Source: a virus | Direction: 5' to 3' (one strand) | DNA: 64,000 bases | IMG/VR virus record: IMGVR_UViG_3300033402_000312 | Part shown: positions 914 to 58,698 of the stretch, piece by piece | How the letters are laid out: the number at the start of each line of letters is the position of its first letter | How positions within the stretch are numbered: position 1 is the first letter of the stretch | The notes under the pieces: model-generated | Told to the model about the DNA's origin: nothing | Databases searched by the model: none | The model's input: the letters and a program-made list of their open reading frames with translations, nothing else | Translations under genes and position numbers: made by a program

Positions 914-1282
914 TCATAAAAAACTGTTCAAATATACCACGTAAAGCGGCTTCCCGAGAATCTCGCCGGGGAGGTTGCGATGCTTCGACCGCGTGGTGAT
1001 CAGGATGATCGCCTTTACGTCATCGCATTTCGCGTATCTCCACAGTTGGCGCGTCACCGCCGAGAGGCCCGCGCCGCCGCGAGAGTCGTTCGTCTTGCAC
1101 TCGATGCCGATGCCGCCCGCGAGGAAGAAGTCCACGCGGTCGCGCCCGCTCAGCGGGTACTCCGGCGCGAAGGGCAGCTTCAGGGCTTCGAGGCACTGGG
1201 CGACGCCCGCCTGAAGCTCCTTCTCGTCCTTGCAGCGGAAGCGGTAGAGCGCCAGCGCACCGGCGAGTTCCTCGGCGGTCAT
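914..1282 (-). CDS. small PD-(D/E)xK-like nuclease-fold protein (122 aa)
   Basis: Segment DRVDFFLAGGIGIECK has the D...E-x-K arrangement typical of restriction-endonuclease-like folds. The ATG at 1282 overlaps the upstream gene's stop (ATGA), which suggests translational coupling. Confidence 0.45.
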   Translation of the reverse strand: MTAEELAGALALYRFRCKDEKELQAGVAQCLEALKLPFAPEYPLSGRDRVDFFLAGGIGIECKTNDSRGGAGLSAVTRQLWRYAKCDDVKAIILITTRSKHRNLPGEILGKPLYVVYLNSFL

Positions 1283-1569
1283 TGCCCACACTCGCGCAAT
1301 TTAAGTTTGTTGGAAATTGGGCAGATAGCGGAGTACATGCGGCGTACAACCCAACAATTTTCCGTTATTTGGAACGTGAGTTTGCAAATCCAGCACTGCG
1401 CAGTATCGCCCAGCATGCCGGGCACAGCGAACTCCCACTCCTTGAGGATGACAATCTCCTCCGCGCCGCAGGAGGGGCATATCAGGTCTTCCGCCCATCT
1501 CCCCTCGGCGATGCCTTCAGGATAACGTGTGTAGAAGGCATACGGTTGATGTTTCGCGCTGTGTTCCAT
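1279..1569 (-). CDS. small zinc-ribbon protein (96 aa)
   Basis: CPSCG...CWIC four-cysteine arrangement. The start at M36 of the listed ORF is preceded by TGGAG. The longer starts at 1602 and 1674 lack an SD, and 1674 would overlap the upstream gene. Confidence 0.4.
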   Translation of the reverse strand: MEHSAKHQPYAFYTRYPEGIAEGRWAEDLICPSCGAEEIVILKEWEFAVPGMLGDTAQCWICKLTFQITENCWVVRRMYSAICPISNKLKLRECGQ

Positions 1570-1606
1570 GCAACTCCAATACTGCGGAACACAAAGTCGC
1601 ATTGTA

Positions 1607-1837
1607 TCAGTACGTGACCACGACGCTCGGGAGCGGCAGCGGCATGCCCGTTGTGGACGGCTGCGTGTAGTCAAACCAGGCAGGCTCGCCGATCCAGACC
1701 GGCTGCGGGTACGGCGGGTATGGCGGGTACGGGTAGCCCGGCTGGTACGGCACGAAGTAGGGATCGCCCCTTCCGCACGTCGGGCAGTAGCCGCAGCGGG
1801 GACAGGGCTTGGGTGAGCAGCAGCAATCAGCCTTCAT
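1607..1837 (-). CDS. Cys/Pro/Tyr-rich small protein (76 aa)
   Basis: ATG at 1837 preceded by GGAGGT. Sequence is CCCSPKPCPRCGYCPTCG followed by PYFVPYQPGYPYPPYPPYPQP repeats. Confidence 0.45.
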   Translation of the reverse strand: MKADCCCSPKPCPRCGYCPTCGRGDPYFVPYQPGYPYPPYPPYPQPVWIGEPAWFDYTQPSTTGMPLPLPSVVVTY

Positions 1838-2483
1838 GACCAACCTCCGCTGCTACAGGCCCCTCGACCTCAGCTTTGGCGTCCGCCTTCGGCTCGTCTT
1901 CCATCGCCCCGGTCGAGAGATCGACCGTGAATTCGGGCTGGCTGCCTGCGGTAGTAGTCGTGACAGCCTGCCAAGCAGGGCTGGAAGAACCGCTGCTGTT
2001 CAGCACGGCGCTGTTCAGCCCGCTGAGGTTGCTGGAGCAGTTCAGCGTCACCGCGCCGCTGTTGGCGTTCGACAGCATGGTATTGCCGGACGTAACCGTG
2101 TTGAGGCTCCCGCTGTTGAGGCTCCCGTAATAGACGGAAGTCTGCGGGGTCCCGAGGTTCACAGTCCACGTGTTGCCGTTCCAGTACCAGCCGTACGGGT
2201 TGTTGTACCATACCCATTGGGGGTAGGAATAGACGTAGCGCACGTTCTGGGGCGGCTCCGTGCCGTTTATGAGGGCTTTTAGCGAACGGTCGAGCATGTC
2301 GAGCCTCGCGACCTCCGCCAGAAGCTCCGTGTGGCTCTGCTGGGCTTTGGCGAGGGCTTTCTCGGCCCGCACCAACGCTGTTTTCTTGGCTGCAAGCTCC
2401 TTGGAGCAGACGGCGGCCAGCTTTCCGTACTTCGTAGACCGCTTTTTGGGGGTCTTCACTGCTTTTTGCTTCGGTTTTGCCAT
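1827..2483 (-). CDS. basic N-terminus / coiled-coil protein with Trp-Tyr-Asn-rich low-complexity C-terminal half (218 aa)
   Basis: ATG at 2483 preceded by GAGGTG. Basic N-terminus MAKPKQKAVKTPKKR, helical segment, then VRYVYSYPQWVWYNNPYGWYWNGNTW and an Asn/Ser/Gly-rich tail. Confidence 0.5.
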   Translation of the reverse strand: MAKPKQKAVKTPKKRSTKYGKLAAVCSKELAAKKTALVRAEKALAKAQQSHTELLAEVARLDMLDRSLKALINGTEPPQNVRYVYSYPQWVWYNNPYGWYWNGNTWTVNLGTPQTSVYYGSLNSGSLNTVTSGNTMLSNANSGAVTLNCSSNLSGLNSAVLNSSGSSSPAWQAVTTTTAGSQPEFTVDLSTGAMEDEPKADAKAEVEGPVAAEVGHEG

Positions 2484-2593
2484 GTGGCACCTCTGGAATT
2501 GCACCCGGCAGTCTGAAAACTGAATGAAACTGTCAAACTGACATGCGGTTTCAAAGGTCTAATACTTGAAAACCAGATATATTGAGAATTTAG

Positions 2594-3772
2594 CTATACG
2601 TTTGCTATAAAGTAGGCGAGCGTTATTTTCGCTGTTCCGTCGCCCTGAGAAACGGGCGGCGAGCCAGCAGGACCGCTCACAGATACAACATCCACTGTAA
2701 ATCCGGTACCCACTCCAGGCTGCGGACCGTCTGCGGTTGTGGGGTCATCTTCTAAACTATCCACTAATGTGGTCGTGCCATAGTAAGTTCCTGGGTTGGT
2801 GATTTCGTAGGTTAACACCGCCCCGCTGTCGTCCACCGTCAGGACTCGGTACGTTGCGTCCATGCTGCTGTTGTTTTGGCGTATTGTGCCGGTGTCCCCG
2901 ACGGCGTACGCAGTGCCCCCACGAGGTCCGTATATTCCCCCGAAAAACTGGCCCAAAATCGTGGAGACTATCGGGGCTTTTGTGTATGTCGTAGTGCTGT
3001 TGGCATATACGACTATCTGCTGGTTGTCAGCCTCGGTCTCGGGCAACCCCTGCACGCCCGACGGACCGCTGGTGACAGGAGGAAGGGCGCTAAACCCCAG
3101 AATGTCGGCCGTAGATGTTAGGGGACTCGAAAAAGACAAAAGATTTGCTCCGAAGCCCGCGTCGTACGGAAAGGAGCCTGCATAGCCGACGTAAAGGAGC
3201 GCGTTTGCGTACGGCGTCGTGTTGAACTTGTAGGAAAGCACGCTAAGCGCCAAGGGCACTATGAATCTTCCAACGCCGGGGACGGGGATGGGGAATGCCA
3301 CCGAGACTACGCTGAGGGAGTTCAACTGGGCCGCTGACAAATCCAATTCTACTGTGTGGATAAGGCTGGAAAGCGGCATGCCGGAACTCTGCACGTTACC
3401 GTCCCCATCCGTAGTGACTATGTTGCCGCCTTCGGCCGTTTTGATGCTGCCGCTCGAATCGGTTACGGCCACGAGCGAGCCGTTGGTGCTCGTTCCCAAT
3501 ACCGTAATTGAACCCGAAGAGGTGACTATACCTGTCGCAATGCCCGCGCCTGAGACTGAAGCTACTGTTCCGCTAGCGGGACTTGCCCAGCCGAGGAATA
3601 CGTTGTTCCCGTTGATCACGGCGGCGTCGAGAAGCTGCCCCTGGATCGGCGCTATGTTCGGGAGCAGGAACGTCAGGTTGCCCCCGATGCCCTGCGCCTG
3701 GATCGTTGCCTGCCCGGCGACCGACCCCGAGAACGTGAGCGTACTGACTACCGGGTTGCCTGCGTCCGCCAT
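2594..3772 (-). CDS. tail fiber-like virion protein (392 aa)
   Basis: Gly/Ser/Thr/Val/Asn-rich beta-type composition typical of phage fibers (GSITVLGTSTNGSLVAVTDSSGSIKTAEGGNIVTTDGDGNV). Adjacent to a second fiber-like gene. Confidence 0.55.
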   Translation of the reverse strand: MADAGNPVVSTLTFSGSVAGQATIQAQGIGGNLTFLLPNIAPIQGQLLDAAVINGNNVFLGWASPASGTVASVSGAGIATGIVTSSGSITVLGTSTNGSLVAVTDSSGSIKTAEGGNIVTTDGDGNVQSSGMPLSSLIHTVELDLSAAQLNSLSVVSVAFPIPVPGVGRFIVPLALSVLSYKFNTTPYANALLYVGYAGSFPYDAGFGANLLSFSSPLTSTADILGFSALPPVTSGPSGVQGLPETEADNQQIVVYANSTTTYTKAPIVSTILGQFFGGIYGPRGGTAYAVGDTGTIRQNNSSMDATYRVLTVDDSGAVLTYEITNPGTYYGTTTLVDSLEDDPTTADGPQPGVGTGFTVDVVSVSGPAGSPPVSQGDGTAKITLAYFIANV

Positions 3773-3784
3773 ACCGCCCCGGCC

Positions 3785-4318: not shown

Positions 4319-4399
4319 AGTTTCCCCCTATTAAGAGAGGCGTAGCCGAAAAACGGCTTCGCTAATTGCCGGTTTTTAGGGGGTTTCTAAAGCGTCCTG

Positions 4400-5182: not shown

Positions 5183-5977
5183 TCATGTCAACTTCTCATA
5201 GTTTTGGATGAACGACCCGATCAGCGCAGGGATCACGGGCGTGCAGGCATTGCCTAGCGCTTTAAGTCGGTATGACCAATCGGGAATCCCATAAACTGCT
5301 CTAACGCCTCGGGCGTAGGCATCAGATTCTGGTTCTTCTGGATCACCGCTCGAACGAGCATTTCCTGCGCCCAGTTCATACTCCCAGTAATGCCAGTCTT
5401 GGCACGCTTGCGCCATCTTCCTTTCGAGTTCTGGTGAAAGCGTCCATCCTCTGGCCACGTCTTCTCCAAGGCATTTAATGCCGTGGGGGTCGTGATGCGC
5501 GAGGATGAAAACGCGTTCCCGTTGGAATGGCGCACCGAAAGCTTCAGCACCCACCACGGACGACCAGCAGGAGTAGCCTGCTCCTTCCAAGTCAGAGACG
5601 ACCCGGTCAGCGCCTTTAGTCTTGAGATTAGGAACGTTCTCAACAAGGACCCAACGAGGCTGTAGTTCCCGGACGACTCTTGCGTACTCGAACCAGAGAC
5701 CGGAGCGGTTGTGGAGTCCTCGCTCTTTGCCCCCGGCTGCAACGCTGAGGTCTTGGCAGGGAAAGCCGCCGCTGATGAGACCGACTGGCTGGAGGTTGTG
5801 CTTGCCGACGTCTCTGACGTCGGAGAATCTTGAGACATTAGGCCACCTAGCCTCTAATACTCGGTTGCAGAAATTGTCAATTTCCACCTGCCAGATGGTC
5901 TCAAAATTAGCCCACGAGAGTCCCAGGTCGATTCCGCCTATTCCAGTGAACAAACTGCCGTGGGTCAGACTCCCCAT
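5183..5977 (-). CDS. dcm: DNA (cytosine-5)-methyltransferase
   Basis: Motif I LFTGIGGIDLG (FxGxGG), motif IV GGFPCQDLSVAG (PCQ), motif VI ENVPNL (ENV), and QRERVF (QxRxR), all in canonical order. Confidence 0.9.
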   Translation of the reverse strand: MGSLTHGSLFTGIGGIDLGLSWANFETIWQVEIDNFCNRVLEARWPNVSRFSDVRDVGKHNLQPVGLISGGFPCQDLSVAAGGKERGLHNRSGLWFEYARVVRELQPRWVLVENVPNLKTKGADRVVSDLEGAGYSCWSSVVGAEAFGAPFQRERVFILAHHDPHGIKCLGEDVARGWTLSPELERKMAQACQDWHYWEYELGAGNARSSGDPEEPESDAYARGVRAVYGIPDWSYRLKALGNACTPVIPALIGSFIQNYEKLT

Positions 5978-8802: not shown

Positions 8803-10932
8803 TTACCTTCTCCCTCTCCTATTCCAAGGGCTTACGGGGTTAGTTCCCATGTAAGAAGCTGCATGTTGTTGGGATTTCTTGAGCTTTTCCATGATCTTCA
8901 GGACTTGCATGGGGATGCCGTCCATGCCGAGCAGCGGGGCCGGGGGGCGCATCATCTGCGCCTGCATGAGCAGGCTGAGACCGGAGGGGTCCATCATCTG
9001 CCCCTGCTCCAACAGCCAGCGCTGGGCAAGGAAGGCGCACAGCATGGCAGCGTCCGCCATGTCGTCATGAGCGCCCTTTTCCTGCGGCGCTGCGACGCGA
9101 ATGCGGTACTTCGCCATAACCTCAAGCTCGACGAGCTTCAGTTCCTGGATGAACTTCGGCACGTAAGGGAAGCGGCAGCGCTCGGACTCGATGTAGCCGC
9201 GCAGGGCGTATGCCATCTGCGAGTTGATCGCGGGCGTCAGGTTGACAAGCTCGAAGTTCCTGATCTTCTTCAGTTCAAGTGTCTGTACAAGCTGCTGGCC
9301 TCCATGCTGGTCGGTCGCCCCCTTGAAGCATGGAAGAATCTTGTTCATCTCCTCCATCCAGTCGAGGATGTCTTCCAGCGGAAGAATCTGATAACCCTCG
9401 TATTTGTTTTGCCCGATCCCCACCTTTACGCCCGGCCATTCGCCCTTCTCGCCGACCATCATCCGGTCGATATAGTCGTAGATCAGCTTGATCGTGCCGT
9501 GCGGACCGCCTGGCTCAAGGTGCCCAATGGCGAGCGCGGATGCGTCGTTCGTCATGCCGAGGTCGAAGCCCCAGAAATAGTTCCTGCCGATCTGCATCGG
9601 AGTGAAGCGCTGGATGTTGATGCGTGCGCTTCCCTCGACAGGCAACCCCCTCTCGTCCCACTTGCAGTCCGTGCATTTCTTCACCGATGCCTCAGTCACA
9701 TAGGATTCGGACGACTCTAGGAACTTGCCGCCATATTCGGCCTTGAATGTAAGCGGGTTCTTCTTGTACTCAGATTTGAGGAACTTCGCCAGCAGCTTCG
9801 GGTTCATCTCGGCGCTTGGGCAATTAAGCGTGAAGATGCCGGAAACGATAGGTCCCTCTTCCAACGCCATCTTGTGAAGCTCGTACATCTTGCCGATCTT
9901 CTTGAGCGGGCTGCTGATGCTCAGAATCATGGAGTCCTGAATGCCCTCGTTCTCGTCCTCGAACTCAAGACCCGGCTCGGTTTCCTCGAAACGCACATTG
10001 GAGTCCGTGCCGAAATCCGTGCCCATCGGCTCTTCCGGCAAGGTGCCAGCCGCGACGAGCTTCTCGTGGTGGAAGTCTGCCGTGGACGGCGTAGCCGCCG
10101 CGTACATGTCGTCCGACGTCGATCCTTTCGCGGAGCGGAAGTGTGCAAACTCGTCGAGCGCAAGGAAGATGGATGAAGGCGAACGCACGGCGTTCGTGGT
10201 GCATGGAAGGCAGCTTACTGTGACCGTGGGCGTGGACTCCTGCTTCTCGCGGTCGGCGAGCGTGACGAATGCCAAGTCCTTTGCATTAGTATCCTTCAGG
10301 TACGGGGCAAAAAAGCTTTCAGCCTTGAGCACCTGCTCGCGCAGCTTCTTGAACAGGCGGTGAGCGCCGTTCTCATCCTGCGCAAGAAACGTGAAGTCAA
10401 TGATGGAGCCGGGAAACAAACCGAAGTGCTCCTGCGGAGACCTGATATTTAATAGCAAGTAAAGCTTGTAGCAGGCCACAGCCGCCACTAGCTCCGACTT
10501 GCCTCCTCTCCGCCCGGCGAAAACGCACGCCTCATTGAAGCCCGCCTCGCCGGGGATGCCGCCCATGTTCGGGATGTCGCGCCAGTCGGAAACGTTGCAG
10601 CGCTGCTCGTTAAACGTAATGCGGAGGTACTCCTCCTCGGTCACGTCCGCGTGCAGTTTCTTCTCGCGGAACACGTCGTACATCGGCACCATGCCCCATC
10701 CGGGGATGCGCGACGTCCATTCTGGCTTGTAGTCGAAGGGAACGCCATAGATCGCCTTGACAATAACGCGCTGCACCGGACGCAGCACGATGCCTATGCC
10801 GCCCGGTCCCTCGATAAATTCGATGGCGTTTTGCAGCTTGCTCGGGTCTTCGATGCTCGCGGCAATGGCTGCGCCGAAGACGGAATCCTTGGCGGCCTTG
10901 CCGAAACGCTTGCTTCTGCGGATGTTAGCCAT
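8803..10932 (-). CDS. terL: terminase large subunit (709 aa)
   Basis: Walker A-like FAGRRGGKSELVAAVACYKL, then FLALDEFAHF (Walker B/DE), then a nuclease-like C-terminal half with acidic residues. The size and position are typical for TerL. Confidence 0.85.
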   Translation of the reverse strand: MANIRRSKRFGKAAKDSVFGAAIAASIEDPSKLQNAIEFIEGPGGIGIVLRPVQRVIVKAIYGVPFDYKPEWTSRIPGWGMVPMYDVFREKKLHADVTEEEYLRITFNEQRCNVSDWRDIPNMGGIPGEAGFNEACVFAGRRGGKSELVAAVACYKLYLLLNIRSPQEHFGLFPGSIIDFTFLAQDENGAHRLFKKLREQVLKAESFFAPYLKDTNAKDLAFVTLADREKQESTPTVTVSCLPCTTNAVRSPSSIFLALDEFAHFRSAKGSTSDDMYAAATPSTADFHHEKLVAAGTLPEEPMGTDFGTDSNVRFEETEPGLEFEDENEGIQDSMILSISSPLKKIGKMYELHKMALEEGPIVSGIFTLNCPSAEMNPKLLAKFLKSEYKKNPLTFKAEYGGKFLESSESYVTEASVKKCTDCKWDERGLPVEGSARINIQRFTPMQIGRNYFWGFDLGMTNDASALAIGHLEPGGPHGTIKLIYDYIDRMMVGEKGEWPGVKVGIGQNKYEGYQILPLEDILDWMEEMNKILPCFKGATDQHGGQQLVQTLELKKIRNFELVNLTPAINSQMAYALRGYIESERCRFPYVPKFIQELKLVELEVMAKYRIRVAAPQEKGAHDDMADAAMLCAFLAQRWLLEQGQMMDPSGLSLLMQAQMMRPPAPLLGMDGIPMQVLKIMEKLKKSQQHAASYMGTNPVSPWNRRGRR

Positions 10933-12000: not shown

Positions 12001-12822
12001 TTATGCGACACCTGCGACTGTTGCTTTTGCCCGCACGATTCCGGTGAGGGGCTGTTTCATAATTCGTTCAGCGATTTTGAACTTTCTGGGCAACGCAATG
12101 ACACAGTCTTTGTAAAGTAGTGCAGTAGCATTACGAGCGCGGTCGCCACAAAGTAAAACATCATGTATGGAACCATGCGGTCCCACTTGCCCATAAATGT
12201 TGTTATCAGCGAGAAAATTCACGAATGTTGTGCATGACGCGAGCGATCCGCAAAGTTCCATGACTGCTGTGTTTTTAGATGTGGCTGGATAGCCGTCCCC
12301 GTCAACCATGCCCCGCCAAAAATGCCTACTGTTAACAACCTCGGCGGAGGGGGCGGCTGTAAAAGACTTGCGTTCAGTTATACCTAGTTCCCTGAGGCGG
12401 CGATACAGCTTATCGGAAAGAAGTTGAACTGTATTACATCCAGCCCTTGTTGGAGAAATTGGATACGAAGACTTCAAGAAATCCAAAAATAATCTAAGGT
12501 GCTTTTTATCCTTCTTCGCCAATTTCAGCCTTATTCTGGCCGCTGCGTTATGTTTGCGGTTTCCTTCAACAGTTCCGTCCGCTAGCAAAAATCCGATCCA
12601 ATAAAGCGCCTCTTCGCCTAGAGGCGCATCAAATGCGGTTTCATTGACGGAATACTTCCTGAAAGCTTCTGAGCGACTTCTGACAGCACCATCACCTTCT
12701 ACCCTGACGATCTTCAGAATTGTGGCGCGGCAAAGACGGTAAGCCTTTTGCAAATCAACGGAGCTTTCTCCAGATTTGTACCGTGTTAAAATTTCCTTGC
12801 GAGTTTTATCCATGATCTTCAT
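12001..12822 (-). CDS. LAGLIDADG-family homing endonuclease (double-motif, ~273 aa)
   Basis: Two LAGLIDADG-type motifs, LYWIGFLLADGTVEG and FWRGMVDGDGYPA, preceded by an N-terminal HTH-like segment. The ATG at 12822 lies 17 nt after the stop of the 1591-aa gene. Confidence 0.8.
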   Translation of the reverse strand: MKIMDKTRKEILTRYKSGESSVDLQKAYRLCRATILKIVRVEGDGAVRSRSEAFRKYSVNETAFDAPLGEEALYWIGFLLADGTVEGNRKHNAAARIRLKLAKKDKKHLRLFLDFLKSSYPISPTRAGCNTVQLLSDKLYRRLRELGITERKSFTAAPSAEVVNSRHFWRGMVDGDGYPATSKNTAVMELCGSLASCTTFVNFLADNNIYGQVGPHGSIHDVLLCGDRARNATALLYKDCVIALPRKFKIAERIMKQPLTGIVRAKATVAGVA

Positions 12823-24358: not shown

Positions 24359-24362
24359 TGCC

Positions 24363-26502: not shown

Positions 26503-27306
26503 TTAAGCGGCTGCTGCCGCACTCCTTTTGTTATTGACCGCGTTGGCACAAGCACGCTTGCAATACTTTCTCGTCTTCACAGAACTAAAATCCTTCCTAC
26601 GCGGGATGATAAAGGAGCCACACGCAGCACAGAAGTTCGGATGAGCTAGATACTCATTCCATTCACGATTTTGCCGCTCTTTTGTAGACTCCTTACGCAA
26701 AGAATTCACAAAACTACGTACACTTTGGATGCCTTTGGAGTACCCGTTTGCCCGCAAACGTTTACAAATCGTAACTGCATCCATCTGTGGCGTCCGTCGA
26801 AGCCACAAGATAATCATTTCCCGAAAAGCATCGCACGCTTTGGCAGGAGGATGCTCTTTACGATACTGACTTAGCTTTTTCCGTCCCTCGGCATTTTCAG
26901 CCCATTTCTGTCCCAAATGCATTTTTCCACCAACCGCGCCCCCTTTTCGACAACCTTCTAACAGTCGCCCAGTCTTAGGACGTCCATACATCCAATTCAA
27001 CTTGCCCGGTGCTGCCCCGTCGCCCCCCAGCGTCATGTTGTAGCCGTTCGCCGGAACGTGGCTTTGGTGCAGGACGATGAAGAAGGTCTCCATTGCCGAA
27101 AGCTCTTCCGGGGTCTTGGCTCGGCGGATTACCTCGACGGTGAAGGCGTCGGCTCCGTACTTGCGGATAGCATTTGACAAATACAACGTGCTTCCGTTTT
27201 TTGCAGCGCGAATATGCTGTTTCCATCGGTCTCGGGCAGACCGTCCCTGCCATTTCCCAATGTAAATTTTGCCGTTCTTCCGGTTTGTAATTTTGTATAT
27301 CAGCAT
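26503..27306 (-). CDS. GIY-YIG homing endonuclease (I-TevI-like, 267 aa)
   Basis: MLIYKITNRKNGKIYIGKWQ (GIY...YIG), R...H, FIVLHQ, and NGYNMTLGGDG (the I-TevI NGYN motif). Basic C-terminal DNA-binding tail with a CxxC. Confidence 0.8.
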   Translation of the reverse strand: MLIYKITNRKNGKIYIGKWQGRSARDRWKQHIRAAKNGSTLYLSNAIRKYGADAFTVEVIRRAKTPEELSAMETFFIVLHQSHVPANGYNMTLGGDGAAPGKLNWMYGRPKTGRLLEGCRKGGAVGGKMHLGQKWAENAEGRKKLSQYRKEHPPAKACDAFREMIILWLRRTPQMDAVTICKRLRANGYSKGIQSVRSFVNSLRKESTKERQNREWNEYLAHPNFCAACGSFIIPRRKDFSSVKTRKYCKRACANAVNNKRSAAAAA

Positions 27307-27308: not shown

Positions 27309-27629
27309 CTAGAATTCGAGGTCATCCAAAATATTTGCCAAAAATGCAGCCGGTTTATCGTCTGGGGCCGCTGGAATGCTTTGTCCATCATCAACCTCAT
27401 TACCAACTAGCTTGATGATACGTCCGCCTTTGACAGCCCAGAACGATCTATCCGCTGGGCACTCGTACACGTTGCCTGCCACGCGGCGCAGCATGAGGCT
27501 GTCGATCTCGAACTGCACGTCGCGGGGAATCGCCATCATCGACGCGAAATGGTTCTTCGAAAAGATGGACTCGCCGGGCTTCTCGCCCCTCACGCCGTGC
27601 GCGACTTTCGGGTAAACCTTCCTGCTCAT
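27309..27629 (-). CDS. small protein tightly coupled to the fiber-like gene (106 aa); possible fiber chaperone
   Basis: ATG 2 nt after the TAA of 27632..28525. Only the C-terminal 106 codons of the listed 300-aa ORF look protein-like. Confidence 0.45.
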   Translation of the reverse strand: MSRKVYPKVAHGVRGEKPGESIFSKNHFASMMAIPRDVQFEIDSLMLRRVAGNVYECPADRSFWAVKGGRIIKLVGNEVDDGQSIPAAPDDKPAAFLANILDDLEF

Positions 27630-27631
27630 AG

Positions 27632-28721: not shown

Positions 28722-29171
28722 CTAAACTTCGTGCCCGGCTGGTTCCTTGGCGCTTCCGTCTACCTGCTCCAGAGCCTTCCTTAAAATCCCCGGATCGTCC
28801 TTGAAGCACTCCATGCCCCGGTTACAATTAGTGCAAAGCAGACGTTTCCGGGAACCGAATGCGTGGATGTGGGTGTCGCGATGGTACAAGGTGAGGGAGG
28901 CCCCGCAGATGAGGCACTTCTTGTCCTGCGAACGCCATAGCTCAAGGTAGTCGCCGGGTGACATGCGCCACTTTTGCTCAAGAAGCTGCTCGAAAGCGGA
29001 GACCTTGGCCCAAAACGACCCGGTGTAGGCATTGTGGCAGGTCTTGCAATAGTCCTGCCTGCCGGAGGCGGTGCGGCGGTTCTCGCCGAAGGCGTCGTAG
29101 GGCAAGACTTTGCCGCAGCGGTTGCACCATTTGGTCTTGGCTATCTCGTCAAAAAGCCTCTTACGCCCCAT
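28722..29171 (-). CDS. HNH endonuclease, phage T4 endonuclease VII-like (149 aa)
   Basis: CNRCG...CKTCH zinc site, then CLICGASL...HRDTHIHAFGSRKRLLCTNCNRG matching the EndoVII C-x2-C / H-x-H / LLC-x2-CN pattern (looser than the 58264 copy). Confidence 0.65.
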   Translation of the reverse strand: MGRKRLFDEIAKTKWCNRCGKVLPYDAFGENRRTASGRQDYCKTCHNAYTGSFWAKVSAFEQLLEQKWRMSPGDYLELWRSQDKKCLICGASLTLYHRDTHIHAFGSRKRLLCTNCNRGMECFKDDPGILRKALEQVDGSAKEPAGHEV

Positions 29172-39216: not shown

Positions 39217-39570
39217 TTACGTAACGACAAGGAAATAGACCGATGTCGCTGACAATAGGTTGCTGCTCAGGTCGTAGGTGTACAGCCCGAAAACTCGTGT
39301 GGACGGGAAGCCGCTCGGAATCACGAGGGTGCCGCCGCTGACGGTCGGGTTGGCGATTATGCCGGTGTCGAACGGTGGCGAACTGTTGAAAGCCGTGATG
39401 CGGACTTTAGCGACATTGAACGTTGCCCAAACCAAGGTAACCGGGGTGTTGGGGGCCACGGGGGATGCGGGCATCGAAGCCAGGGAGGCGTAGGGCGGCA
39501 GGCTTCCGTCCCCCGCCGTGGTGTACGACGCTACCAACGCGAAGCCGCCGATCAGAGGCAGTGACGGCAT
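39217..39570 (-). CDS. virion structural protein (117 aa)
   Basis: Pro/Ser/Thr/Val-rich beta composition. Start overlaps the stop of the upstream Ig-like gene by 1 nt. Confidence 0.45.
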   Translation of the reverse strand: MPSLPLIGGFALVASYTTAGDGSLPPYASLASMPASPVAPNTPVTLVWATFNVAKVRITAFNSSPPFDTGIIANPTVSGGTLVIPSGFPSTRVFGLYTYDLSSNLLSATSVYFLVVT

Positions 39571-42890: not shown

Positions 42891-43874
42891 TTAGATACCG
42901 AGATTGTCTGTATTGCTGGCTTTCCGGGCTTTGTGAGACGCCCTCATCCTTTGCCTAGTGGACTCTGGGCGTGTCTTTCCCGCCCAATATCCGGGCTTTC
43001 CGAAGCGGTTATTGCCAGCCCCCTGCCTCTGTTCGGATAGCCGCTTGCGTGCTTCATCCGACCATTTCCAGTGCTTTCCCTCGGCTGCCACGCGGACTTT
43101 CGCGGCGTGTTCCTTCGAAAGTTTGCGTCCATCCAATGTTTCGCTGATCTTGTCAGCGACTTCCTTGGGGCAGCCGCCTGCACGATGGTGCCGATCTCTG
43201 TGCGGGAGGTAGGAATAGGCGTTTGGTTTTCCCTTCTCTAGTTGATGATGCGCTTTGCTTCTTTCGCCTACTTTCATCTTAAATTCGCTTGAATGATAAG
43301 TGGGCCTCCCCAAGCAAAATCCTCGCTCCAAAGACGATTGAACCTCCTCGACTGGGACACGGTAAGACTCTTCTCCCTTGTGTACCCATTGGCGCGGCGG
43401 AGCGACCTGTGTCCATCCATCTATGAGCTTGGTGTCGAGTTCTTCGGCGGACACCACGGTGTGCAGCTTGCCTTTGTAAATATGCATCCAGCCTTCGACT
43501 GACACAGCGCCGGAGCGGATGCGCTCGTATTCTAGTGACATGTCCCGCACCAACGCCTCGTCGTAATTGCTCTGCACCAAAATGTTGAGGCGCTCCACGG
43601 ATGCCATCTTGAGGAAGGACAAGTAAGCAACCGGATGCTTCGGCAAAGCGCGGTAGAGGTAGTAGTGCGCTACGAAATGGTCGGACGGTGTGAGACGCTT
43701 CAGATTCCATGAGTGGTCTCTGAACGACTCGAACTCGGGGAACATGGCGCGTGGCAGAATGTGGTGGCGATGGCTGCGACCTGCCGGGGATTTGGCGGAC
43801 GTGACAAAATCCAGATAAGCGCCAATCCAATTCTGGTCAGCGCCCAGCCGACCGAAGTACGTTTTGAAATCCAT
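42891..43874 (-). CDS. HNH homing endonuclease with NUMOD-like C-terminal DNA-binding repeats (327 aa)
   Basis: SHRHHILPRAMFPEF...NLKRLTPSDHFVAHYYLY (HH...N...H HNH_3 pattern). C-terminal LSKEHAAKVRVAAEGKHW and GKPGYWAGKTRPESTRQRMRASH NUMOD-like repeats. Confidence 0.75.
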   Translation of the reverse strand: MDFKTYFGRLGADQNWIGAYLDFVTSAKSPAGRSHRHHILPRAMFPEFESFRDHSWNLKRLTPSDHFVAHYYLYRALPKHPVAYLSFLKMASVERLNILVQSNYDEALVRDMSLEYERIRSGAVSVEGWMHIYKGKLHTVVSAEELDTKLIDGWTQVAPPRQWVHKGEESYRVPVEEVQSSLERGFCLGRPTYHSSEFKMKVGERSKAHHQLEKGKPNAYSYLPHRDRHHRAGGCPKEVADKISETLDGRKLSKEHAAKVRVAAEGKHWKWSDEARKRLSEQRQGAGNNRFGKPGYWAGKTRPESTRQRMRASHKARKASNTDNLGI

Positions 43875-43913
43875 GCAGTCTAATACTGCGATTTTTGAAA
43901 TTCAAAAGAAAAA

Positions 43914-43943
43914 GCCCCAAAGCGAGTTCGCTTTGGGGCTTTT
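43914..43943 (-). terminator. strong intrinsic terminator after the putative major capsid gene (approximate)
   Basis: GCCCCAAAGCGA-gt-TCGCTTTGGGGC perfect inverted repeat. On the minus strand it is followed by TTTTTCTTTTG. Confidence 0.65.
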
Positions 43944-43967
43944 GGTAGGTTGTTGGAAAACTTAGGG

Positions 43968-44927
43968 TTAGTTCTCACCCGTGTTCGCCGAGCTAACGAA
44001 ACGTCCGTTAACCGTCAAACGCTGGACTCCCGAAGGATTGAAAACCAAAAATCCCAAATTCTCGAAGATCGAGAAGCCGATCTGGCGGAGGTCCGGACGG
44101 TCGGCAGACATCACCGTGAGCGGAATACGCTCGGGGATGACGCCGAGGAACTCTGCGTCCGCAAGGATGTAAATGGAGCCGTAGCCGACCTTACGGGACT
44201 GGAGCAGCGTTGCGCCCCAGAGGTAGCCCATGACGCCGGTCTTGAGCAGCTTGCGCTGGGTTTCGCGGTCGATGTTCTGCTGAGTCCACTTGAGCAGGTC
44301 GGTGTAGTCGCGCGGGTTGAAGAACACGAACGCAACCGAGAGGTCGTGACGCTGCACCTGACCGAAGCCATCAGCCATGCTGTTGATGTCGATAGGGGCG
44401 TTGATCGCGATGTCCGGGTTGTACACCGGGTCGTTTGCCGCGTGCGTTGCCGCTGCGGAAGCGACTGCGTCGAAGAGCGAGAAGACGTAGGCGTCTTCCT
44501 GCGCTCCGACTTCTGCCTTCGCCAAGTTCAGGGAACGGGCGACGAGGTCGAAGCGGCGCTCCTTGATCTGGGTGATGGGGATCATCGGGTTGGAGACGAT
44601 TTCGAACGTCGGCACGGTGACGCGCTTCGGCTTGGTGACGCGGACGATGTCGCCGCCCTCTTCACCAACCACGAAAGCTTCGACGAAGGACGAGCCGGGT
44701 GTGGAGCCGACTGTCATCGCCGCCGTGTCGAATTCCTTGTCGTAGATCGGCAGTGCGCCGTCAGGCAGTGTCTCGACCATGAGCGCCTTGCGTGCGATGC
44801 TCATGTAGTCGCGACGGCGGCGAAGGGAAGGACCCAACGACGCTGCGAGCTTCTGGCGTCCGCCTGCTGTCTTGAGCAGTTGCCCAAGCATTGCGGTCTG
44901 TTGCTGCGTGCGTGAAAGATTTGCCAT
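43968..44927 (-). CDS. putative major capsid protein (319 aa from the internal ATG)
   Basis: ATG at 44927 preceded by TTAGGAGAAAAA. Sits after the scaffold-like gene and is followed by the strongest terminator in the window. Size and composition are compatible with an HK97-fold coat protein. No motif-level proof. Confidence 0.5.
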   Translation of the reverse strand: MANLSRTQQQTAMLGQLLKTAGGRQKLAASLGPSLRRRRDYMSIARKALMVETLPDGALPIYDKEFDTAAMTVGSTPGSSFVEAFVVGEEGGDIVRVTKPKRVTVPTFEIVSNPMIPITQIKERRFDLVARSLNLAKAEVGAQEDAYVFSLFDAVASAAATHAANDPVYNPDIAINAPIDINSMADGFGQVQRHDLSVAFVFFNPRDYTDLLKWTQQNIDRETQRKLLKTGVMGYLWGATLLQSRKVGYGSIYILADAEFLGVIPERIPLTVMSADRPDLRQIGFSIFENLGFLVFNPSGVQRLTVNGRFVSSANTGEN

Positions 44928-44968
44928 GATAGTTTTTCTCCTAAGAAGTTGTCTTAGTCGATTCCCCC

Positions 44969-45541
44969 TTACAGCAAGCTCGCAACGCCCAGCCACGGCT
45001 CGGGAGCCGTGGGGACGTGCGTGACGATGCCAACGGCAGGCGAGGCTGAACCCTTGTGAGCGGAGTCAGTGTACTTGCCGACGTTGGATTTTGTGTTGCC
45101 GCCTGCGTAGGCGTACTGCCCGAGCGCGAAGTTCGCGTTGGCATCGTAGCCTTGGAAGTCAACGTTGCCTTGCCACAAAGCGCGGACAACAGGAGCCTTG
45201 CGGGAGCCGGAAGGCCCGATAGCACCAGCGAACTCGCCGGGGCCATTGAGCAGTGTTGCGAACGGGACGTTGCCCTCGGAAGCGCCATAGGAAGGCGACG
45301 CCGCGTCAGTGTCAACGGGGACGATGTTTCCAATGGAACCCATCGCAGGCTCGTATGACGGCTGGAACGCAAGGGGGGCGGTCAAGGTCGCGGACGAGTC
45401 GATGATCGCCACGATGACGCCGCCGAGGTAGCCAGCGGAGGTAAGAGTCTGTTGGTCAGTGCCCGGATCGCCGGTCAGGAAGACGGCCGGGGTGCAATTG
45501 ACCGAATCGTTCTGACCATAGTATGTCAATTTCAAAGACAT
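44969..45541 (-). CDS. head-module protein (190 aa), Gly/Ala/Ser-rich; decoration or minor capsid candidate
   Basis: ATG preceded by TGGAGAAA. Located between the scaffold-like gene and the capsid gene. Confidence 0.45.
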   Translation of the reverse strand: MSLKLTYYGQNDSVNCTPAVFLTGDPGTDQQTLTSAGYLGGVIVAIIDSSATLTAPLAFQPSYEPAMGSIGNIVPVDTDAASPSYGASEGNVPFATLLNGPGEFAGAIGPSGSRKAPVVRALWQGNVDFQGYDANANFALGQYAYAGGNTKSNVGKYTDSAHKGSASPAVGIVTHVPTAPEPWLGVASLL

Positions 45542-45733
45542 AGTGGTTTCTCCAGTTTATGAAACGAAAAGATACGCTCTTGATTTGCCTAACCCAATCC
45601 GGTCACCTTGGGGGCGAGTAGGACTATAGGTTTTGGCGCGTATACACTTAAGGGGGTGGTAGCGGGGATTTTTGTTCATTATCGACGTGCCACGTGCAGT
45701 ATTAGTCTGGAGTCCAGTTGAGGAGACGCAGCT

Positions 45734-46312
45734 ATGACCAAGGGAACAAGAAGAATCTATTACCAATTCTCGACGTCCAGAGGGGTAGGCTCTTGGTTCA
45801 TCCGCTGGTTCACTTGGTCAGAGTTCAGCCACGTGGACTTGGTGGAGCCGGACGGCTGGCTTCTGGGTGCCCGCCTCTTCGCTAACCATGCGCCAAGCGG
45901 GAAAGGCGGTGTGCAACGGAGACCGCCCGAGTACGTCAAGTTCACTAAGACCCTTCGTGTCTGCATCGAGGTGACGCAGACCCAATACGAAACATTCTGG
46001 GCGGAGGCGCACAGGCAGATAGGCAAGAAGTACGACTGGCTGGCTGTCTTTGGGTTTCTGTTCAAGAAGGACTGGCAGAACCAAGATCGGTGGTTTTGCT
46101 CAGAGTTTGGTCTTTGGGTGGCTGTGCAGGCTGGGGTGCGAATGCTGAACCTTAGCCGCATAGACAGGTGCTCCCCAGAGCTACTTCTCTGCTCGCCTGA
46201 GTTTCACAGAGAAGACGAAGACGAGTACTACAAATACTACTCTGAGTGGACGATTGGAAAACGAGATTGGCCACGAAGCCCGATGCCCGCTTCTCGAACC
46301 TTCGTTAAATGA
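45734..46312 (+). CDS. permuted papain-fold (NlpC/P60 superfamily, YiiX/YaeF-like) amidase/peptidase (192 aa)
   Basis: ATG preceded by GAGGAG. Has SHVDLV (His) ahead of DRWFCSEFGLWV (Cys in a CSEL/F-type context), the His-before-Cys order of permuted NlpC/P60 enzymes. Confidence 0.5.
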   Translation: MTKGTRRIYYQFSTSRGVGSWFIRWFTWSEFSHVDLVEPDGWLLGARLFANHAPSGKGGVQRRPPEYVKFTKTLRVCIEVTQTQYETFWAEAHRQIGKKYDWLAVFGFLFKKDWQNQDRWFCSEFGLWVAVQAGVRMLNLSRIDRCSPELLLCSPEFHREDEDEYYKYYSEWTIGKRDWPRSPMPASRTFVK

Positions 46313-46367: not shown

Positions 46368-48593
46368 TTAAAATTCGTCGTCGCCAAGCAGTGCGCCAGC
46401 GATGTCGAATGGCTTCTGCTCCGAAGCGGTGATATTCTTGAGCTTCTTGATGACCGGGACCTTCTCGGCAACCTTCTCCTTGGCGGGAGCGGCTGCGTTG
46501 GCTGCCTTCGCGGACGATGACTTCGGCGCTTGCAGAACGTTGGTCTCGTCCTGCTTGACGCGCTTGAAGCCTCCGTCCTCGGGCTTCTGGTCTTCGATGG
46601 CTTCCGCGAACAGGTCGCCTTCGTGGTCGTTCTCGTTGTCGCGGCTCTCGCCGGTCGCGGAGTCAGACTCGAAATGCTTCGCGGCTTCGCCTGTGAACGA
46701 CGGGACGACTTCCATCCCGGCGACTTCGGCTGCGGTGCGAACCTCGCCTGCGATCAGTGCGCGGAGAGGGTCGGAGTCGGAGCCTTGCAGGGAGAAGAAG
46801 TCCTCCATCGATGCGATCTGCGTGTCGTCGAGGCTGGCTTCCATGCTCTCTGCGGCGGACGGAGCGAAGTACTCTTCGCCATTGCCCGCGACGTGCTCTT
46901 CGCCTTCGTTGGCAAGGGCGGAGACCTTTTCTTCTATCTCGTCCTCGTTGAAGACCTTCGCAAGGTCAAGCTCCTCTTCTCCCTCTTGCAGGATTTCCTG
47001 CTCAAGGGCTTTGATGGCTTCCTGCGCCTCCTCGATTTTCTCCTCAACGACCATCTTCTTCTCGTCGCTTAGAACTTCGCCAGCAGTGTCAGCTTCCGCG
47101 CCTTCGTCCACCGGCAAGTCTGCCGGGGCTTCCTCAATCGGGGCCTCTTCAACCGGGGCTTCTCCGAGAGCTTCCGGGGCTTCCTCAATCGGGGCCTCTT
47201 CAACTGGAGGTACATCCCCTGCGGGAGCGTCTATCGTCTCGTCAGCCTTCTTGGCTGCGGCTTCCTTCGCGCCGCACTTACACGGTCCCTCGCACTTGCA
47301 TTCTGCTTCAGCCTTCTTGGGCGCTGCGGCTGCCTTGGAAGCTGCCTTGCCGTCGCCTTCGGACTTGTTGACTGTGTTCTCGGGACGGTTGGCAGCCTCG
47401 GTCTGCGATGCAGACGTGCCTGCATCCATGGGCTTCGGCTCGGTATGCTTGCCGCCGCCTGCGCCGCGCCCATCGTTGTAAGTCTCGGTCTGCGGTCCCG
47501 CGTCCTTGCGGTCGTCAGCCTTCTTCTCAACGGCGGCGTTCTTGGGATCGCCCTTGACTTCGGCTGCGACTTCTTTTTTGAGGGACGAGAGGACTGAGGG
47601 GTCTTCTAAGGCATCGTTAAGCTCGACCTTATGGACTTGCTTGAAGGTCTCGGCAAGCTTGGAATAGTGCGCGTTTTTTGCCGTCTGACGAAGCATCGCG
47701 TTCAGGACTTTCGTGCTGTTTGAGAGCAAGCTGGATGCGGCGTCCTTCTGCGCCTCTGCCGGAGCGGTCGGGAGCATCGTCTTAGCGATAGTCCACGCGG
47801 CCGCGACGCGCTGCTGCGCCTCGCGCCTGATAGCCTCGCGCTTGGTCTTCACTTCTGCCAGCTTCTCTTGCACCGAAGCTTTGGCTGGGGTCGAATTTGC
47901 CATGTTGGAGCCTTCCTTTTTCGTGTCAGAACGGGCAGAAACGCCCTTCTTAACAGGGGATGCGTAGCTGTTTTTCTTGCCGATTGCGTCCTTGCTTTGT
48001 CTAACTCCGCAGTAAATGCACTGGTTGTTCGGGTCGTTGCCTGGGTTTTGCCCGCAAACCCAGCACTTCTTGGCAGCAGTCACCGAGGCTGTCGGAGGTT
48101 CCAGCGGGGCTGGTTCTGCTGCTGGTTCTGCGGCGGGGATTTCAGGTGCCGGAGCGGGTTCGGCAGGAAGTGCTTCAGGAGCGGGGGGTATTGCTGCCTC
48201 AGGAACAGGGGCTGCTTCCGGCAGAGGTGCCGGGGCTGCCAAGCCGGGGGCGGGTGCTATGCCGCCAAGCTCGTCTGCCGCTGCCACTTCCCCGCCAGCG
48301 ATGTCGCTGATCTCGATGTCGATCTCGCCGAGCAAGCCCTTTATCTGCTCAGACCACGGGCCGTCCTTGAACTTCTCCCACTGGGAGATAAGCTCGACCC
48401 CCTCGCGCATCTGCCGAATCTCTTCCTCAAGCTCCTCGCGCTTCTCGGACAAAAGGTCAAATTCAGGAGAGACTGCCATGTTGGCTGGAGCCTCGGGTGC
48501 CATCTCAGGCATGCCCATGATTTGGTCGTCCATTACGTCCAGATCAGCTTGCTTCTTCGCCAATGCAGCTTGCAATTTCTTTAAGTTTGCCAT
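46368..48593 (-). CDS. acidic low-complexity scaffolding-like protein (741 aa)
   Basis: ATG preceded by TAGGGAG. Coiled-coil N-terminus, APIEEAPEALGEAPVEEAPIEEAP repeats, CWVCG...CIYCG and CKCEGPCKCG cysteine clusters, pI strongly acidic. Sits in the slot upstream of the capsid gene. Confidence 0.55.
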   Translation of the reverse strand: MANLKKLQAALAKKQADLDVMDDQIMGMPEMAPEAPANMAVSPEFDLLSEKREELEEEIRQMREGVELISQWEKFKDGPWSEQIKGLLGEIDIEISDIAGGEVAAADELGGIAPAPGLAAPAPLPEAAPVPEAAIPPAPEALPAEPAPAPEIPAAEPAAEPAPLEPPTASVTAAKKCWVCGQNPGNDPNNQCIYCGVRQSKDAIGKKNSYASPVKKGVSARSDTKKEGSNMANSTPAKASVQEKLAEVKTKREAIRREAQQRVAAAWTIAKTMLPTAPAEAQKDAASSLLSNSTKVLNAMLRQTAKNAHYSKLAETFKQVHKVELNDALEDPSVLSSLKKEVAAEVKGDPKNAAVEKKADDRKDAGPQTETYNDGRGAGGGKHTEPKPMDAGTSASQTEAANRPENTVNKSEGDGKAASKAAAAPKKAEAECKCEGPCKCGAKEAAAKKADETIDAPAGDVPPVEEAPIEEAPEALGEAPVEEAPIEEAPADLPVDEGAEADTAGEVLSDEKKMVVEEKIEEAQEAIKALEQEILQEGEEELDLAKVFNEDEIEEKVSALANEGEEHVAGNGEEYFAPSAAESMEASLDDTQIASMEDFFSLQGSDSDPLRALIAGEVRTAAEVAGMEVVPSFTGEAAKHFESDSATGESRDNENDHEGDLFAEAIEDQKPEDGGFKRVKQDETNVLQAPKSSSAKAANAAAPAKEKVAEKVPVIKKLKNITASEQKPFDIAGALLGDDEF

Positions 48594-56147: not shown

Positions 56148-56250
56148 TAGGTAGCCAGTTTCGGGAAGTCGGCTGTATACTCAGTATGACTAAATGAAAC
56201 CGCTGGACAGGCGGGGCGCAAGCCCCGCCGCCAGCCTCAAGGAGAGAAGA

Positions 56251-56466: not shown

Positions 56467-56468
56467 CC

Positions 56469-57347: not shown

Positions 57348-57368
57348 ACACCGCAAGTAAAAGGGGAC

Positions 57369-57566
57369 GTGATGTCAGGGCGCACAGGAAAAATGACGGC
57401 GGAAGCCCTTGCGGCTCGCGGGCCGAGGATGGCTCTTGCTCAGGTGGACGGCAAACTCAAGATTTTTGACAATGAGCACGATGTGCCGGTCGGCGCGACC
57501 ATCATCGCCAAGTCTTTCAGCTTGAACTACCTCAAGAAGATCGAGAAAACCAATCGCCTTTTTTAA
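57369..57566 (+). CDS. small protein (65 aa)
   Basis: ATG preceded by AAAGGGGA. Confidence 0.4.
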   Translation: MMSGRTGKMTAEALAARGPRMALAQVDGKLKIFDNEHDVPVGATIIAKSFSLNYLKKIEKTNRLF

Positions 57567-57569
57567 TCC

Positions 57570-58250
57570 TCAGGAACCCGAGTAAAGAAGCGACTGACCC
57601 GTCGCGTCGCTGCGGCTCAGACCTGCGTCGAGGAACTCGCCGTAGACTGAACCGGAGACGTCGAAAATGTCGGTGACGGTGATGGTGCAGTCTTCCGCGA
57701 CGGCGGCCGTGTCCACGGTGTAGCCCGTGTTGTACGATTCCATCCAGCACCCTTCGTAAACCGTTGCTACGCAGAACACGCCGGGGTTGCCCGTGTTGTC
57801 CAGACCGCCCTCTGCGGGCACGTCCGCGACGGTCGCCTCCCCGACGTTGCCGGAATTGAACGACGCCAGTTCCGAGAACACGACCTCGGTCTTGATGTCG
57901 AAAGGCCAGCGGTGGTGCCTCAGGGAGCGGACCGCGCCGGAAGTGCCTGCCTTGTAGCCGAGGACTTGCATGAGGTTCGCGAGGTAGAGGCAGGTGCGAG
58001 TGATGCTGATGCTCAGCGGGGTGGTGACGCCAGGCACAAGCTCCGCGACCTGGTCGCCGTAGCCGAGACCGCGCACCGGGTCGATTGTCTTGCTTTCAGT
58101 GTAGGTGAAGCTGGAGGTCACGCCCAGCTTCACGAATGCCCCGACGTCCACCAAGTCCGTGAAAATCTTGAACCTTGTGGACAGGACGGTTTCCGTGTTC
58201 GGGGTCGTGCCCTGCCTATAAATGTAGGCTCCCTGCGTTGCTGCTGCCAT
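57570..58250 (-). CDS. virion structural protein (226 aa), tail-module
   Basis: Beta-rich Thr/Ser/Gly/Val composition. Lies in the tail region next to the tube and sheath genes. Confidence 0.5.
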   Translation of the reverse strand: MAAATQGAYIYRQGTTPNTETVLSTRFKIFTDLVDVGAFVKLGVTSSFTYTESKTIDPVRGLGYGDQVAELVPGVTTPLSISITRTCLYLANLMQVLGYKAGTSGAVRSLRHHRWPFDIKTEVVFSELASFNSGNVGEATVADVPAEGGLDNTGNPGVFCVATVYEGCWMESYNTGYTVDTAAVAEDCTITVTDIFDVSGSVYGEFLDAGLSRSDATGQSLLYSGS

Positions 58251-58263
58251 AGTATGCTTTCCT

Positions 58264-58698
58264 TTAGAAGCTTACTGCTCCTGTCACAAGGGTTGCAAAG
58301 TTGGAGTTTAGATATTCACTTGCCTTTCGGAGTAGGTTGCTGTCATCTCTTCCCATTCCGAGTAACCTATTGCATCGCCCGCACAAAAGTCCTCTTATGC
58401 ACTTACCGCAACTGCGCGAACCGGGGCAACAAGCATGGTCATGGTCTAATTGCAGCCGCCTAGGGCCTTCGACGACTTGCCCACAGATAGCGCAAGCTCC
58501 TTTTTGTTTTTCCAACAAAGCATTGAATTGCTCTAATGTGATCCCATGCCTTTCGATTTTCTGCCCTCGTGCACGTTGGTTGTGGCAGACTTTGCAGTAC
58601 GTTTGAACCCCAAATCTGCGCGACGCATCCTTGTAAAACTTTTCAAGGTCAGTTTCCCCGCAAGGGCAGACTTTGAACAACTTAGCTTTACGCCCCAT
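58264..58698 (-). CDS. HNH endonuclease, T4 endonuclease VII family (144 aa)
   Basis: CPCGETD...CKVCHN zinc site, then CAICGQVV...LQLDHDHACCPG...CIRGLLCGRCNRLLG, close to the EndoVII signature CLIC...HLDHDH...VRGLLCNLCN. Confidence 0.8.
   Translation of the reverse strand: MGRKAKLFKVCPCGETDLEKFYKDASRRFGVQTYCKVCHNQRARGQKIERHGITLEQFNALLEKQKGACAICGQVVEGPRRLQLDHDHACCPGSRSCGKCIRGLLCGRCNRLLGMGRDDSNLLRKASEYLNSNFATLVTGAVSF

Follow-up and report, generated by a model that had tools for sequence, protein, structure and literature searches.

Here, we analyse a stretch of viral DNA of 64,000 nucleotides (nt; IMG/VR record IMGVR_UViG_3300033402_000312, hereafter the window) and propose that four independent, free-standing homing endonuclease gene (HEG) cassettes have most likely invaded intergenic slots of the phage's structural-gene module by intronless homing. 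The cassettes are predicted to encode a LAGLIDADG, a GIY-YIG, an HNH-NUMOD and an Endo VII/DHHRN-type nuclease, the last of which we call EndoVII-2. An earlier interpretation of the letters alone (the sequence-only reading) had named six nuclease open reading frames (ORFs), five of them as mobile-type genes and the sixth as a small PD-(D/E)xK protein. All six exist as called, with nuclease folds supported by Pfam, PHROGs, motifs and models. Its suggestion to look for insertion-free alleles in related genomes divided them: the four low-GC cassettes have empty-site alleles, whereas a second Endo VII-type gene (EndoVII-1) and a small PD-(D/E)xK-like gene at 914–1282 are syntenic in relatives and resident.

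Megablast of two 22-kb stretches of the window against GenBank phages gave no match at the DNA level. Relatives were therefore taken from IMG/VR, and every window protein was run by tblastn against 173 related loci (L-numbers below denote loci of these related phages). The search for related loci with gene 2594–3772 as query returned nothing, and the 914–1282 protein then served as query. The four genes display the features by which HEGs are recognised, namely a recognised nuclease family, an intergenic position, and presence in some genomes and absence from others between conserved flanks. Each ORF is flanked by the stop codon of one gene and the start codon of another, and these two genes abut in relatives; base-level alignments reveal clean, precise junctions between filled and empty alleles, and different nucleases or other cargo occupy the four slots in other relatives. 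GC content is 0.47 for the LAGLIDADG gene (against about 0.58 for its own neighbours), 0.50 for the GIY-YIG gene, 0.49 for EndoVII-2 and 0.55 for the HNH gene, compared with about 0.58–0.62 in neighbouring genes overall. An Rfam scan of the whole window matched no family, hence no group I or II intron, and the four HEGs, which lie in neither introns nor inteins, are thus free-standing. The spacing of 2–17 nt from neighbouring genes that the sequence-only reading had given for every nuclease holds for the LAGLIDADG gene (16 nt past the stop codon of a giant gene of 1591 amino acids (aa), 11 nt ahead of the next gene) and for the GIY-YIG gene, which fits exactly between an upstream stop codon 2 nt away and a downstream ATG (26498) 4 nt away. 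It is roughly right on the downstream side of the HNH gene (18 nt) and of EndoVII-2 (13 nt), but not on their upstream sides, where 93 nt with a terminator inside separate the HNH gene from the capsid stop codon and 141 nt precede EndoVII-2.

The natural-population evidence for one homing-type event, that of the HNH gene directly downstream of the major capsid gene, is unusually clear. Over its last ~91 nt, the capsid gene is 96–98% identical to HEG-carrying alleles (L001, L006) and 70–73% identical to HEG-free alleles (L003–L008), whereas in the preceding 90 nt the relationship is reversed, with 95–98% identity to HEG-free and 78–88% to HEG-carrying alleles. Of the 36 informative sites, the 20 that follow position −91 all agree with the HEG-carrying alleles, and the 6 immediately preceding it agree with the HEG-free ones. 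The differences within the tract are almost all synonymous, and its GC content is 0.49 versus 0.59. The downstream flank of the HNH gene has a shorter, weaker tract of about 60–90 nt. Such a tract is the signature that would be expected of double-strand-break repair copying a nuclease gene with its flanks. As the breakpoint falls within the capsid gene, 91 nt from its end, the 3′ end of that gene moves together with the nuclease. This recoded end could shield the carrier genome from its own nuclease, whose cut site is probably located at the 3′ end of the capsid gene or in the adjoining intergenic region.

The HNH slot, i.e., the interval from the capsid gene to the next gene, was found at 66 loci, which were pooled into 39 distinct alleles. 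It is empty in 18 of these, with gaps of 105–173 nt, and filled by HNH-NUMOD genes 39–78% identical to that of the window in 7. One further allele (L023-25/29) was scored as Endo VII-type, and the remaining 13 carry other inserts, including NUDIX, glycosyltransferase (galactosyltransferase-like) and collagen-repeat genes and large zinc-finger proteins. Such cargo was seen across L026, L036, L041, L048, L058 and L011; slot proteins of 476–580 aa have repeated Cys motifs and an 'IEYHGLxWHSE' segment and no Pfam match, and L036 holds non-nuclease cargo together with a further Endo VII-type gene. At L009:5400-5536 and in L011, a 39%-identical HNH ORF ends in a partial copy of the last capsid codons (...QVQRLTVNTGEN*) that is significant against shuffles, which suggests that this cassette entered within the 3′ coding end of the capsid gene and brought a replacement tail. 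A search for a capsid-tail remnant at the far end of the HNH cassette gave a significant result in L009/L011 only, and the window has no such remnant.

Assignment of the HNH protein rests on several lines of evidence. It matches phrog_655 'homing endonuclease' (6e-18) and phrog_12434 'HNH endonuclease' (4e-12). Pfam returned no HNH match for the window protein and scored NUMOD3 at 19.0 bits, just under the cutoff of 20.4 bits, which other members of the family exceed. The seven syntenic slot copies all keep residues H37/H38, N57, H66 and H70; in a wider family of 14 members H66 and H70 are still invariant and N57 nearly so. In a structure model built from an alignment of database homologues, these residues fall in a confidently modelled beta-beta-alpha region, and the predicted fold has 35 matches at E<=1e-3 in BFVD, nearly all of them Mob-type or HNH homing endonucleases, including MobE and MobD. 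PDB sequence and profile searches, and a Foldseek search of the PDB with the whole model, gave nothing significant or informative. A hairpin (GCAGT-ATTAG-ACTGC, 43874–43890) abuts the start codon of the HNH gene, which has no obvious Shine-Dalgarno sequence, and is kept in all HEG-carrying alleles; by analogy with some T4 endonucleases, this hairpin may hold back nuclease translation. No sigma-70 promoter emerged from a scan of the DNA around the HNH and EndoVII-2 cassettes.

The LAGLIDADG ORF spans 12001–12861/12822, and the public gene call begins at 12813 (270 aa). Its product matches LAGLIDADG_3 (26.4 bits, Pfam cutoff 22.5) and phrog_4645 (4e-32) and is of the double-motif type, with both motifs (IGFLLADGT and RGMVDGDGY) present and each retaining its catalytic acidic residue. 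The slot is empty in L081, where a 4-nt gap separates the giant gene from the next gene, and in L084, where the gap is 11 nt. A 76%-identical LAGLIDADG gene directly follows the giant gene in a different background (L178–L181) that lacks the window's downstream neighbour. The upstream giant gene is thus the sole flank common to the two hosts of this nuclease, and the cut site probably lies near its 3′ end.

The GIY-YIG protein matches the Pfam family of that name with 28.5 bits over residues 2–90 (cutoff 22.6), and its best PDB sequence match is the catalytic domain of I-TevI (E=5e-4); NCBIfam added a single match, a sub-threshold one to a group I intron endonuclease. The slot is empty, with its flanking genes abutting, in six alleles (L081, L082, L083, L085, L091, L093). 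In L084 and L086-90/92 (3 alleles) it is filled by divergent GIY-YIG genes that are either 25% identical to that of the window or 66% identical across the catalytic domain only. GIY-YIG relatives match only in the N-terminal ~100–150 aa, in keeping with modular C-termini and with an arrangement of N-terminal catalytic domain and separate C-terminal DNA-binding region. Homology also suggests revised gene calls around this slot: the neighbouring 730-aa ORF truly starts at ATG 26498 rather than 26555, the 300-aa ORF 27309–28211 is conserved only in its last ~106 codons so that the real gene is short (about 27309–27630), and ORF 27632–28525 in another frame is a real gene of 297 aa.

EndoVII-2 matches Pfam Endonuclease_7 with 72 bits, and T4 Endo VII is its best PDB sequence match. 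Its motif (CAIC...LDHDH...IRGLLCGRCN) lies within residues 59–118 of 144, i.e., in the C-terminal half, and contains CX2C, DHDH, R and CX2C-N, which is the full motif set described for DHHRN/F-CphI proteins (PMC6083498). Upstream of gene 57570–58250, the cassette took the place of ~55 nt of native intergenic sequence. This slot is empty in 30 of 39 distinct alleles (pooled from 71 loci), including that of the closest relative, L094, against which the junctions are clean and the flanks about 95% identical right up to the junction, with no co-conversion seen. The native segment is common to L094 and L095 and, more loosely, to L097 and L112; as HEG-free relatives share it, the empty state is ancestral and the state of the window is an insertion. 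The same slot (window 58251–58839) holds a 126–156-aa gene with a ParB-like 'LDGHHR' motif in L095, L097 and L112, and GIY-YIG genes in L113/114/131/123/165, of which the L123 copy looks frameshifted. The sequence GACTTTGGGG, found upstream of gene 57570–58250 in HEG-free relatives, was tried as a recurrent phage promoter and rejected, with 4 matches versus 4.8 expected.

Intronless homing, as in the seg and mob genes of T4, is the most likely mechanism for these insertions. When a related phage without the HEG infects the same cell, the nuclease would cut this naive genome within the neighbouring conserved gene or close to it; recombination with the nuclease-carrying genome as template would repair the break, and the cassette would be copied in together with a stretch of flanking sequence. 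For this to operate, the four predicted enzymes would have to be active and site-specific, and cleavage rather than passive recombination would have to drive the spread of the cassettes.

Several observations weigh against this proposal. A clear co-conversion signature is limited to the HNH cassette, and the Fisher test of its breakpoint (p=4e-4) is uncorrected for the choice of breakpoint. The 3′ end of the giant gene beside the LAGLIDADG gene shows an AT shift only and no clean breakpoint, and the nearest empty GIY-YIG alleles are, at about 74–79% aa identity, too divergent for a co-conversion comparison. EndoVII-2 is a singleton: its slot holds an Endo VII gene at none of the 71 loci, its best relatives share 52% identity with it and the search turned up no donor allele, so that its insertion is documented and its spread is not. 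Finally, the slots also hold non-nuclease cargo (NUDIX, glycosyltransferase, collagen-like and ParB-like genes), which indicates that they are general hypervariable sites where nuclease-independent recombination is also at work.

This cargo and the missing donor allele of EndoVII-2 are what would be expected if the four genes were moron-like passengers of hypervariable slots, which come and go through ordinary or illegitimate recombination, with a nuclease activity that benefits the phage, for example through breakdown of host or competitor DNA or interference with co-infecting phages, instead of promoting its own homing. A phage homing endonuclease has reportedly been linked to interference competition in one study, which also speaks for such a role. 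We nevertheless regard this alternative as improbable, as all four families include classic phage homing endonucleases, nucleases are strongly over-represented among the slot occupants, the position of the LAGLIDADG gene in two backgrounds is constant with respect to a single flank, and the 3′ end of the capsid gene is transferred with the HNH gene. It is, moreover, not exclusive of homing.

A purely vertical origin, in which all six genes are resident enzymes of DNA metabolism (resolvase, packaging or repair) that some relatives have lost, applies to two of them. EndoVII-1 occurs at the same position in L081 (84% identity), L082 (81%), L083 (75%), L084 (83%) and L091 (47%), i.e., in 5 of 5 relatives whose local synteny is conserved, and its identity declines along with that of its neighbours. 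Its composition is host-like (GC 0.58, GC at third codon positions 0.76). Its best PDB sequence match is Hpy99I, and its motif, again in the C-terminal half, has the active site RDTHIH (D-x-H-x-H) rather than DHDH; in place of the metal-binding Asn, L083 has K and L091 has Q. EndoVII-1 thus departs from the DHHRN definition of a central DHDH with a conserved Asn, and the gene shows no presence/absence polymorphism. Judging from synteny and composition, EndoVII-1 is a maintained, vertically inherited resident protein of uncertain activity, with no evidence of mobility.

The 914–1282 protein has no Pfam match and belongs to a family of 85 homologues (41–87% identity) that are nearly all 117–125 aa long and single-copy. 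D51 and E61-x-K63 are invariant over 35 homologues, as are E20 and Q79, and an AlphaFold2 (AF2) model with a predicted local distance difference test score of 91.8 has the expected PD-(D/E)xK topology. The top Foldseek matches in the PDB (3dnx, I-Bth0305I, Cas4 SSO0001, Can2, PspGI, BamHI) are weak (E 8e-3 to about 0.1); the modelled core and the D...(D/E)xK motif nonetheless agree with a nuclease of this fold. The gene is syntenic in L174, the closest large relative, at 85% identity and shows no presence/absence polymorphism; it is a conserved resident gene, again with no evidence of mobility. Both residents probably serve DNA processing by the phage itself.

Extended to all six genes, vertical descent is very hard to sustain. 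The four cassettes have a foreign GC content and are missing from most relatives, including the closest, in which the flanking genes abut precisely at these sites; unrelated nuclease families fill the slots in different relatives; and the native intergenic segment of HEG-free relatives argues for insertion in the window, not deletion elsewhere. The claim of the sequence-only reading that the two Endo VII genes are recent paralogues, reflecting ongoing spread of one HEG within this genome, has even less to recommend it and can practically be set aside: both match Endonuclease_7 and align at E=2e-9, but at 33% identity over 114 aa a recent spread within the genome is ruled out, and they differ in GC content (0.58 vs 0.49), in active-site motif and in the possession by EndoVII-1 of syntenic orthologues up to 84% identical.

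The window represents the structural-gene module of a high-GC, myovirus-like lineage of uncultured megaphages of roughly 450 kb (Table 1). This assignment follows from the PHROG matches of its structural genes, from the lack of a DNA-level match among GenBank phages and from the large contigs on which relatives and identical proteins sit: IMG/VR contains many relatives on contigs of 150–460 kb, with capsid proteins 83–98% identical to that of the window, and proteins identical to those of the window are recorded on 436–449 kb contigs and on one of 894,233 bp. The last is about twice 447 kb and may reflect a doubled (concatemeric) assembly rather than a genuine genome of 0.9 Mb. Nearly all window genes lie on the minus strand at a GC content of about 0.58–0.62, and several giant ORFs encode 1591–2072 aa.

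Table 1. Positions of the nuclease genes, of elements associated with the HNH cassette and of marker genes in the window
Feature	Position	Strand	Basis
Free-standing double-motif LAGLIDADG HEG (predicted), N-terminal helix-turn-helix-like region	12001..12822	-	LAGLIDADG_3, phrog_4645
Free-standing GIY-YIG HEG (predicted)	26503..27306	-	Pfam GIY-YIG, homing-endonuclease PHROGs phrog_314/7168, TIGR01453 (sub-threshold), I-TevI catalytic domain
Free-standing Mob-like HNH gene (predicted), NUMOD3-type C-terminal repeats, directly downstream of major capsid gene	42891..43874	-	
Upstream part of HNH cassette: recoded capsid end and replaced intergenic region	43875..44058	-	
Co-conversion tract, last ~91 nt of capsid gene	43968-44058	-	Sliding-window identity
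Terminator hairpin with 15-bp stem in capsid-HNH gap	43910-43943	-	
Endo VII/DHHRN-type free-standing cassette (EndoVII-2, ORF 58264-58698)	58255..58732	-	Endonuclease_7
EndoVII-1, resident Endo VII/Hpy99I-like zinc-binding beta-beta-alpha-Me protein	28722..29171	-	Endonuclease_7, 39 bits
Small resident protein with PD-(D/E)xK-like fold	914..1282	-	Invariant residues and AF2 model
Large terminase	8803-10932		PHROG match
Major head protein (capsid gene)	43968-44996	-	PHROG match
Tail sheath	61225-63999+		PHROG match

Further features were noted in the window and its relatives. When the other unassigned window ORFs were screened for additional nucleases, none emerged; the screen yielded just a C5 DNA methyltransferase and a protein with an Ig-like domain. 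The former, a C5 cytosine DNA methyltransferase at 5183–5977 (minus strand; Pfam DNA_methylase, 1e-40), has a slightly lowered GC content of 0.55. The latter is a 331-aa gene at 39570–40565 (minus strand) with a weak match to bacterial Ig-like domains and no tblastn match in any related locus; its neighbours are conserved on both sides, which marks a further variable, non-nuclease slot. Between 46368–48593 and 44969–45541, the window (45557–46312) carries a plus-strand ORF (45734–46312, phrog_1128) and no nuclease, and the matching slot holds a reverse-strand GIY-YIG gene in L001 and L002 and an Endo VII-type gene in L037-39. The terminase large subunits (TerL) of L178:2308-4482 and L093:18301-21294 contain an in-frame insert of ~340–380 aa right after the P-loop, with LAGLIDADG-like motifs and the boundaries GRRGGK|ALGIDEP ... 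VTHN|S. This insert is very probably an intein, and the window TerL is an intein-free allele.

It is tempting to propose that the capsid-downstream and similar slots are nuclease-driven hotspots of cargo exchange in these soil or peat megaphages and that the nucleases serve as weapons of interference competition, a view that we consider possible though rather doubtful. If it is true, HEGs that cut in or next to the highly conserved 3′ end of the capsid gene would spread themselves and also drag accessory genes (NUDIX, glycosyltransferase, collagen-like, large zinc-finger proteins) and recoded capsid termini between co-infecting lineages.

The proposal of intronless homing itself extends the T4-style pattern of free-standing HEGs to uncultured high-GC phages of roughly 450 kb, including insertion beside essential structural genes, turnover of nuclease families at a given slot and co-conversion of flanks. 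It provides testable pairs of nuclease and empty allele, among them a candidate free-standing DHHRN enzyme and a free-standing LAGLIDADG enzyme, and either might supply novel sequence-specific nucleases. The annotation of the window is corrected in that two of the six flagged nucleases are resident and nothing indicates recent intragenomic duplication, while the current understanding of homing endonucleases is unchanged.

The best-studied counterpart is bacteriophage T4, which carries 15 HEGs that take up about 11% of its coding potential and for which intronless homing with co-conversion is documented for SegG, SegF and MobE (PMC2988022). Like the seg (GIY-YIG) and mob (HNH) genes of T4, the window cassettes lie between conserved genes and outside introns and show presence/absence polymorphism. 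They include GIY-YIG and HNH members with putative modular C-terminal DNA-binding regions (NUMOD), and flank co-conversion, clear at the HNH cassette, and displacement of native intergenic regulatory DNA are further parallels. The likeness extends to the proteins, as the predicted fold of the HNH protein resembles MobE and MobD and the GIY-YIG domain resembles I-TevI. In contrast to T4, the window phage is uncultured, high in GC, roughly 450 kb in size and without DNA-level kinship to any GenBank phage, its nucleases are predicted ones, and the set includes a LAGLIDADG enzyme and one with an Endo VII motif, neither of which occurs in T4 as a free-standing HEG. The four mobile genes sum to 3045 nt, or 4.8% of the window; the nuclease load that the sequence-only reading called unusually high is thus notable but below that of T4.

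F-CphI of cyanophage S-PM2 is a homing endonuclease with an Endo VII motif, and in its 'endonuclease clade' this motif is C-terminal (PMC6083498). EndoVII-2, free-standing and with a C-terminal motif, has the arrangement of this clade and not that of the resolvase clade, although its similarity to the characterised F-CphI/DHHRN members is confined to the motif region. EndoVII-1, in turn, resembles T4 endonuclease VII (gp49) and Hpy99I in its zinc-binding beta-beta-alpha-Me domain and is conserved and syntenic like a housekeeping phage nuclease. It differs from gp49 in its C-terminal D-x-H-x-H, in the Asn that two orthologues do not keep and in having a restriction enzyme as best solved relative, differences that make it at most a putative resolvase.

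In ICP1 and diverse other phages, HEGs cluster near capsid, terminase and other essential genes and turn over at single loci (Barth et al. 2023, PMC10448857). The window differs from these phages in that no T5orf172 or IPA-HNH proteins were identified in it and in that its relatives are metagenomic contigs, not isolates. It matches their pattern in that its nucleases adjoin the major capsid gene and large structural genes and lie near the terminase, in the different HEG families found in one slot, and in the position of a nuclease at a boundary of genetic exchange, the breakpoint within the capsid gene. The four cassettes add new members, from a new host lineage, to known HEG families, and their load is notable but not unprecedented.

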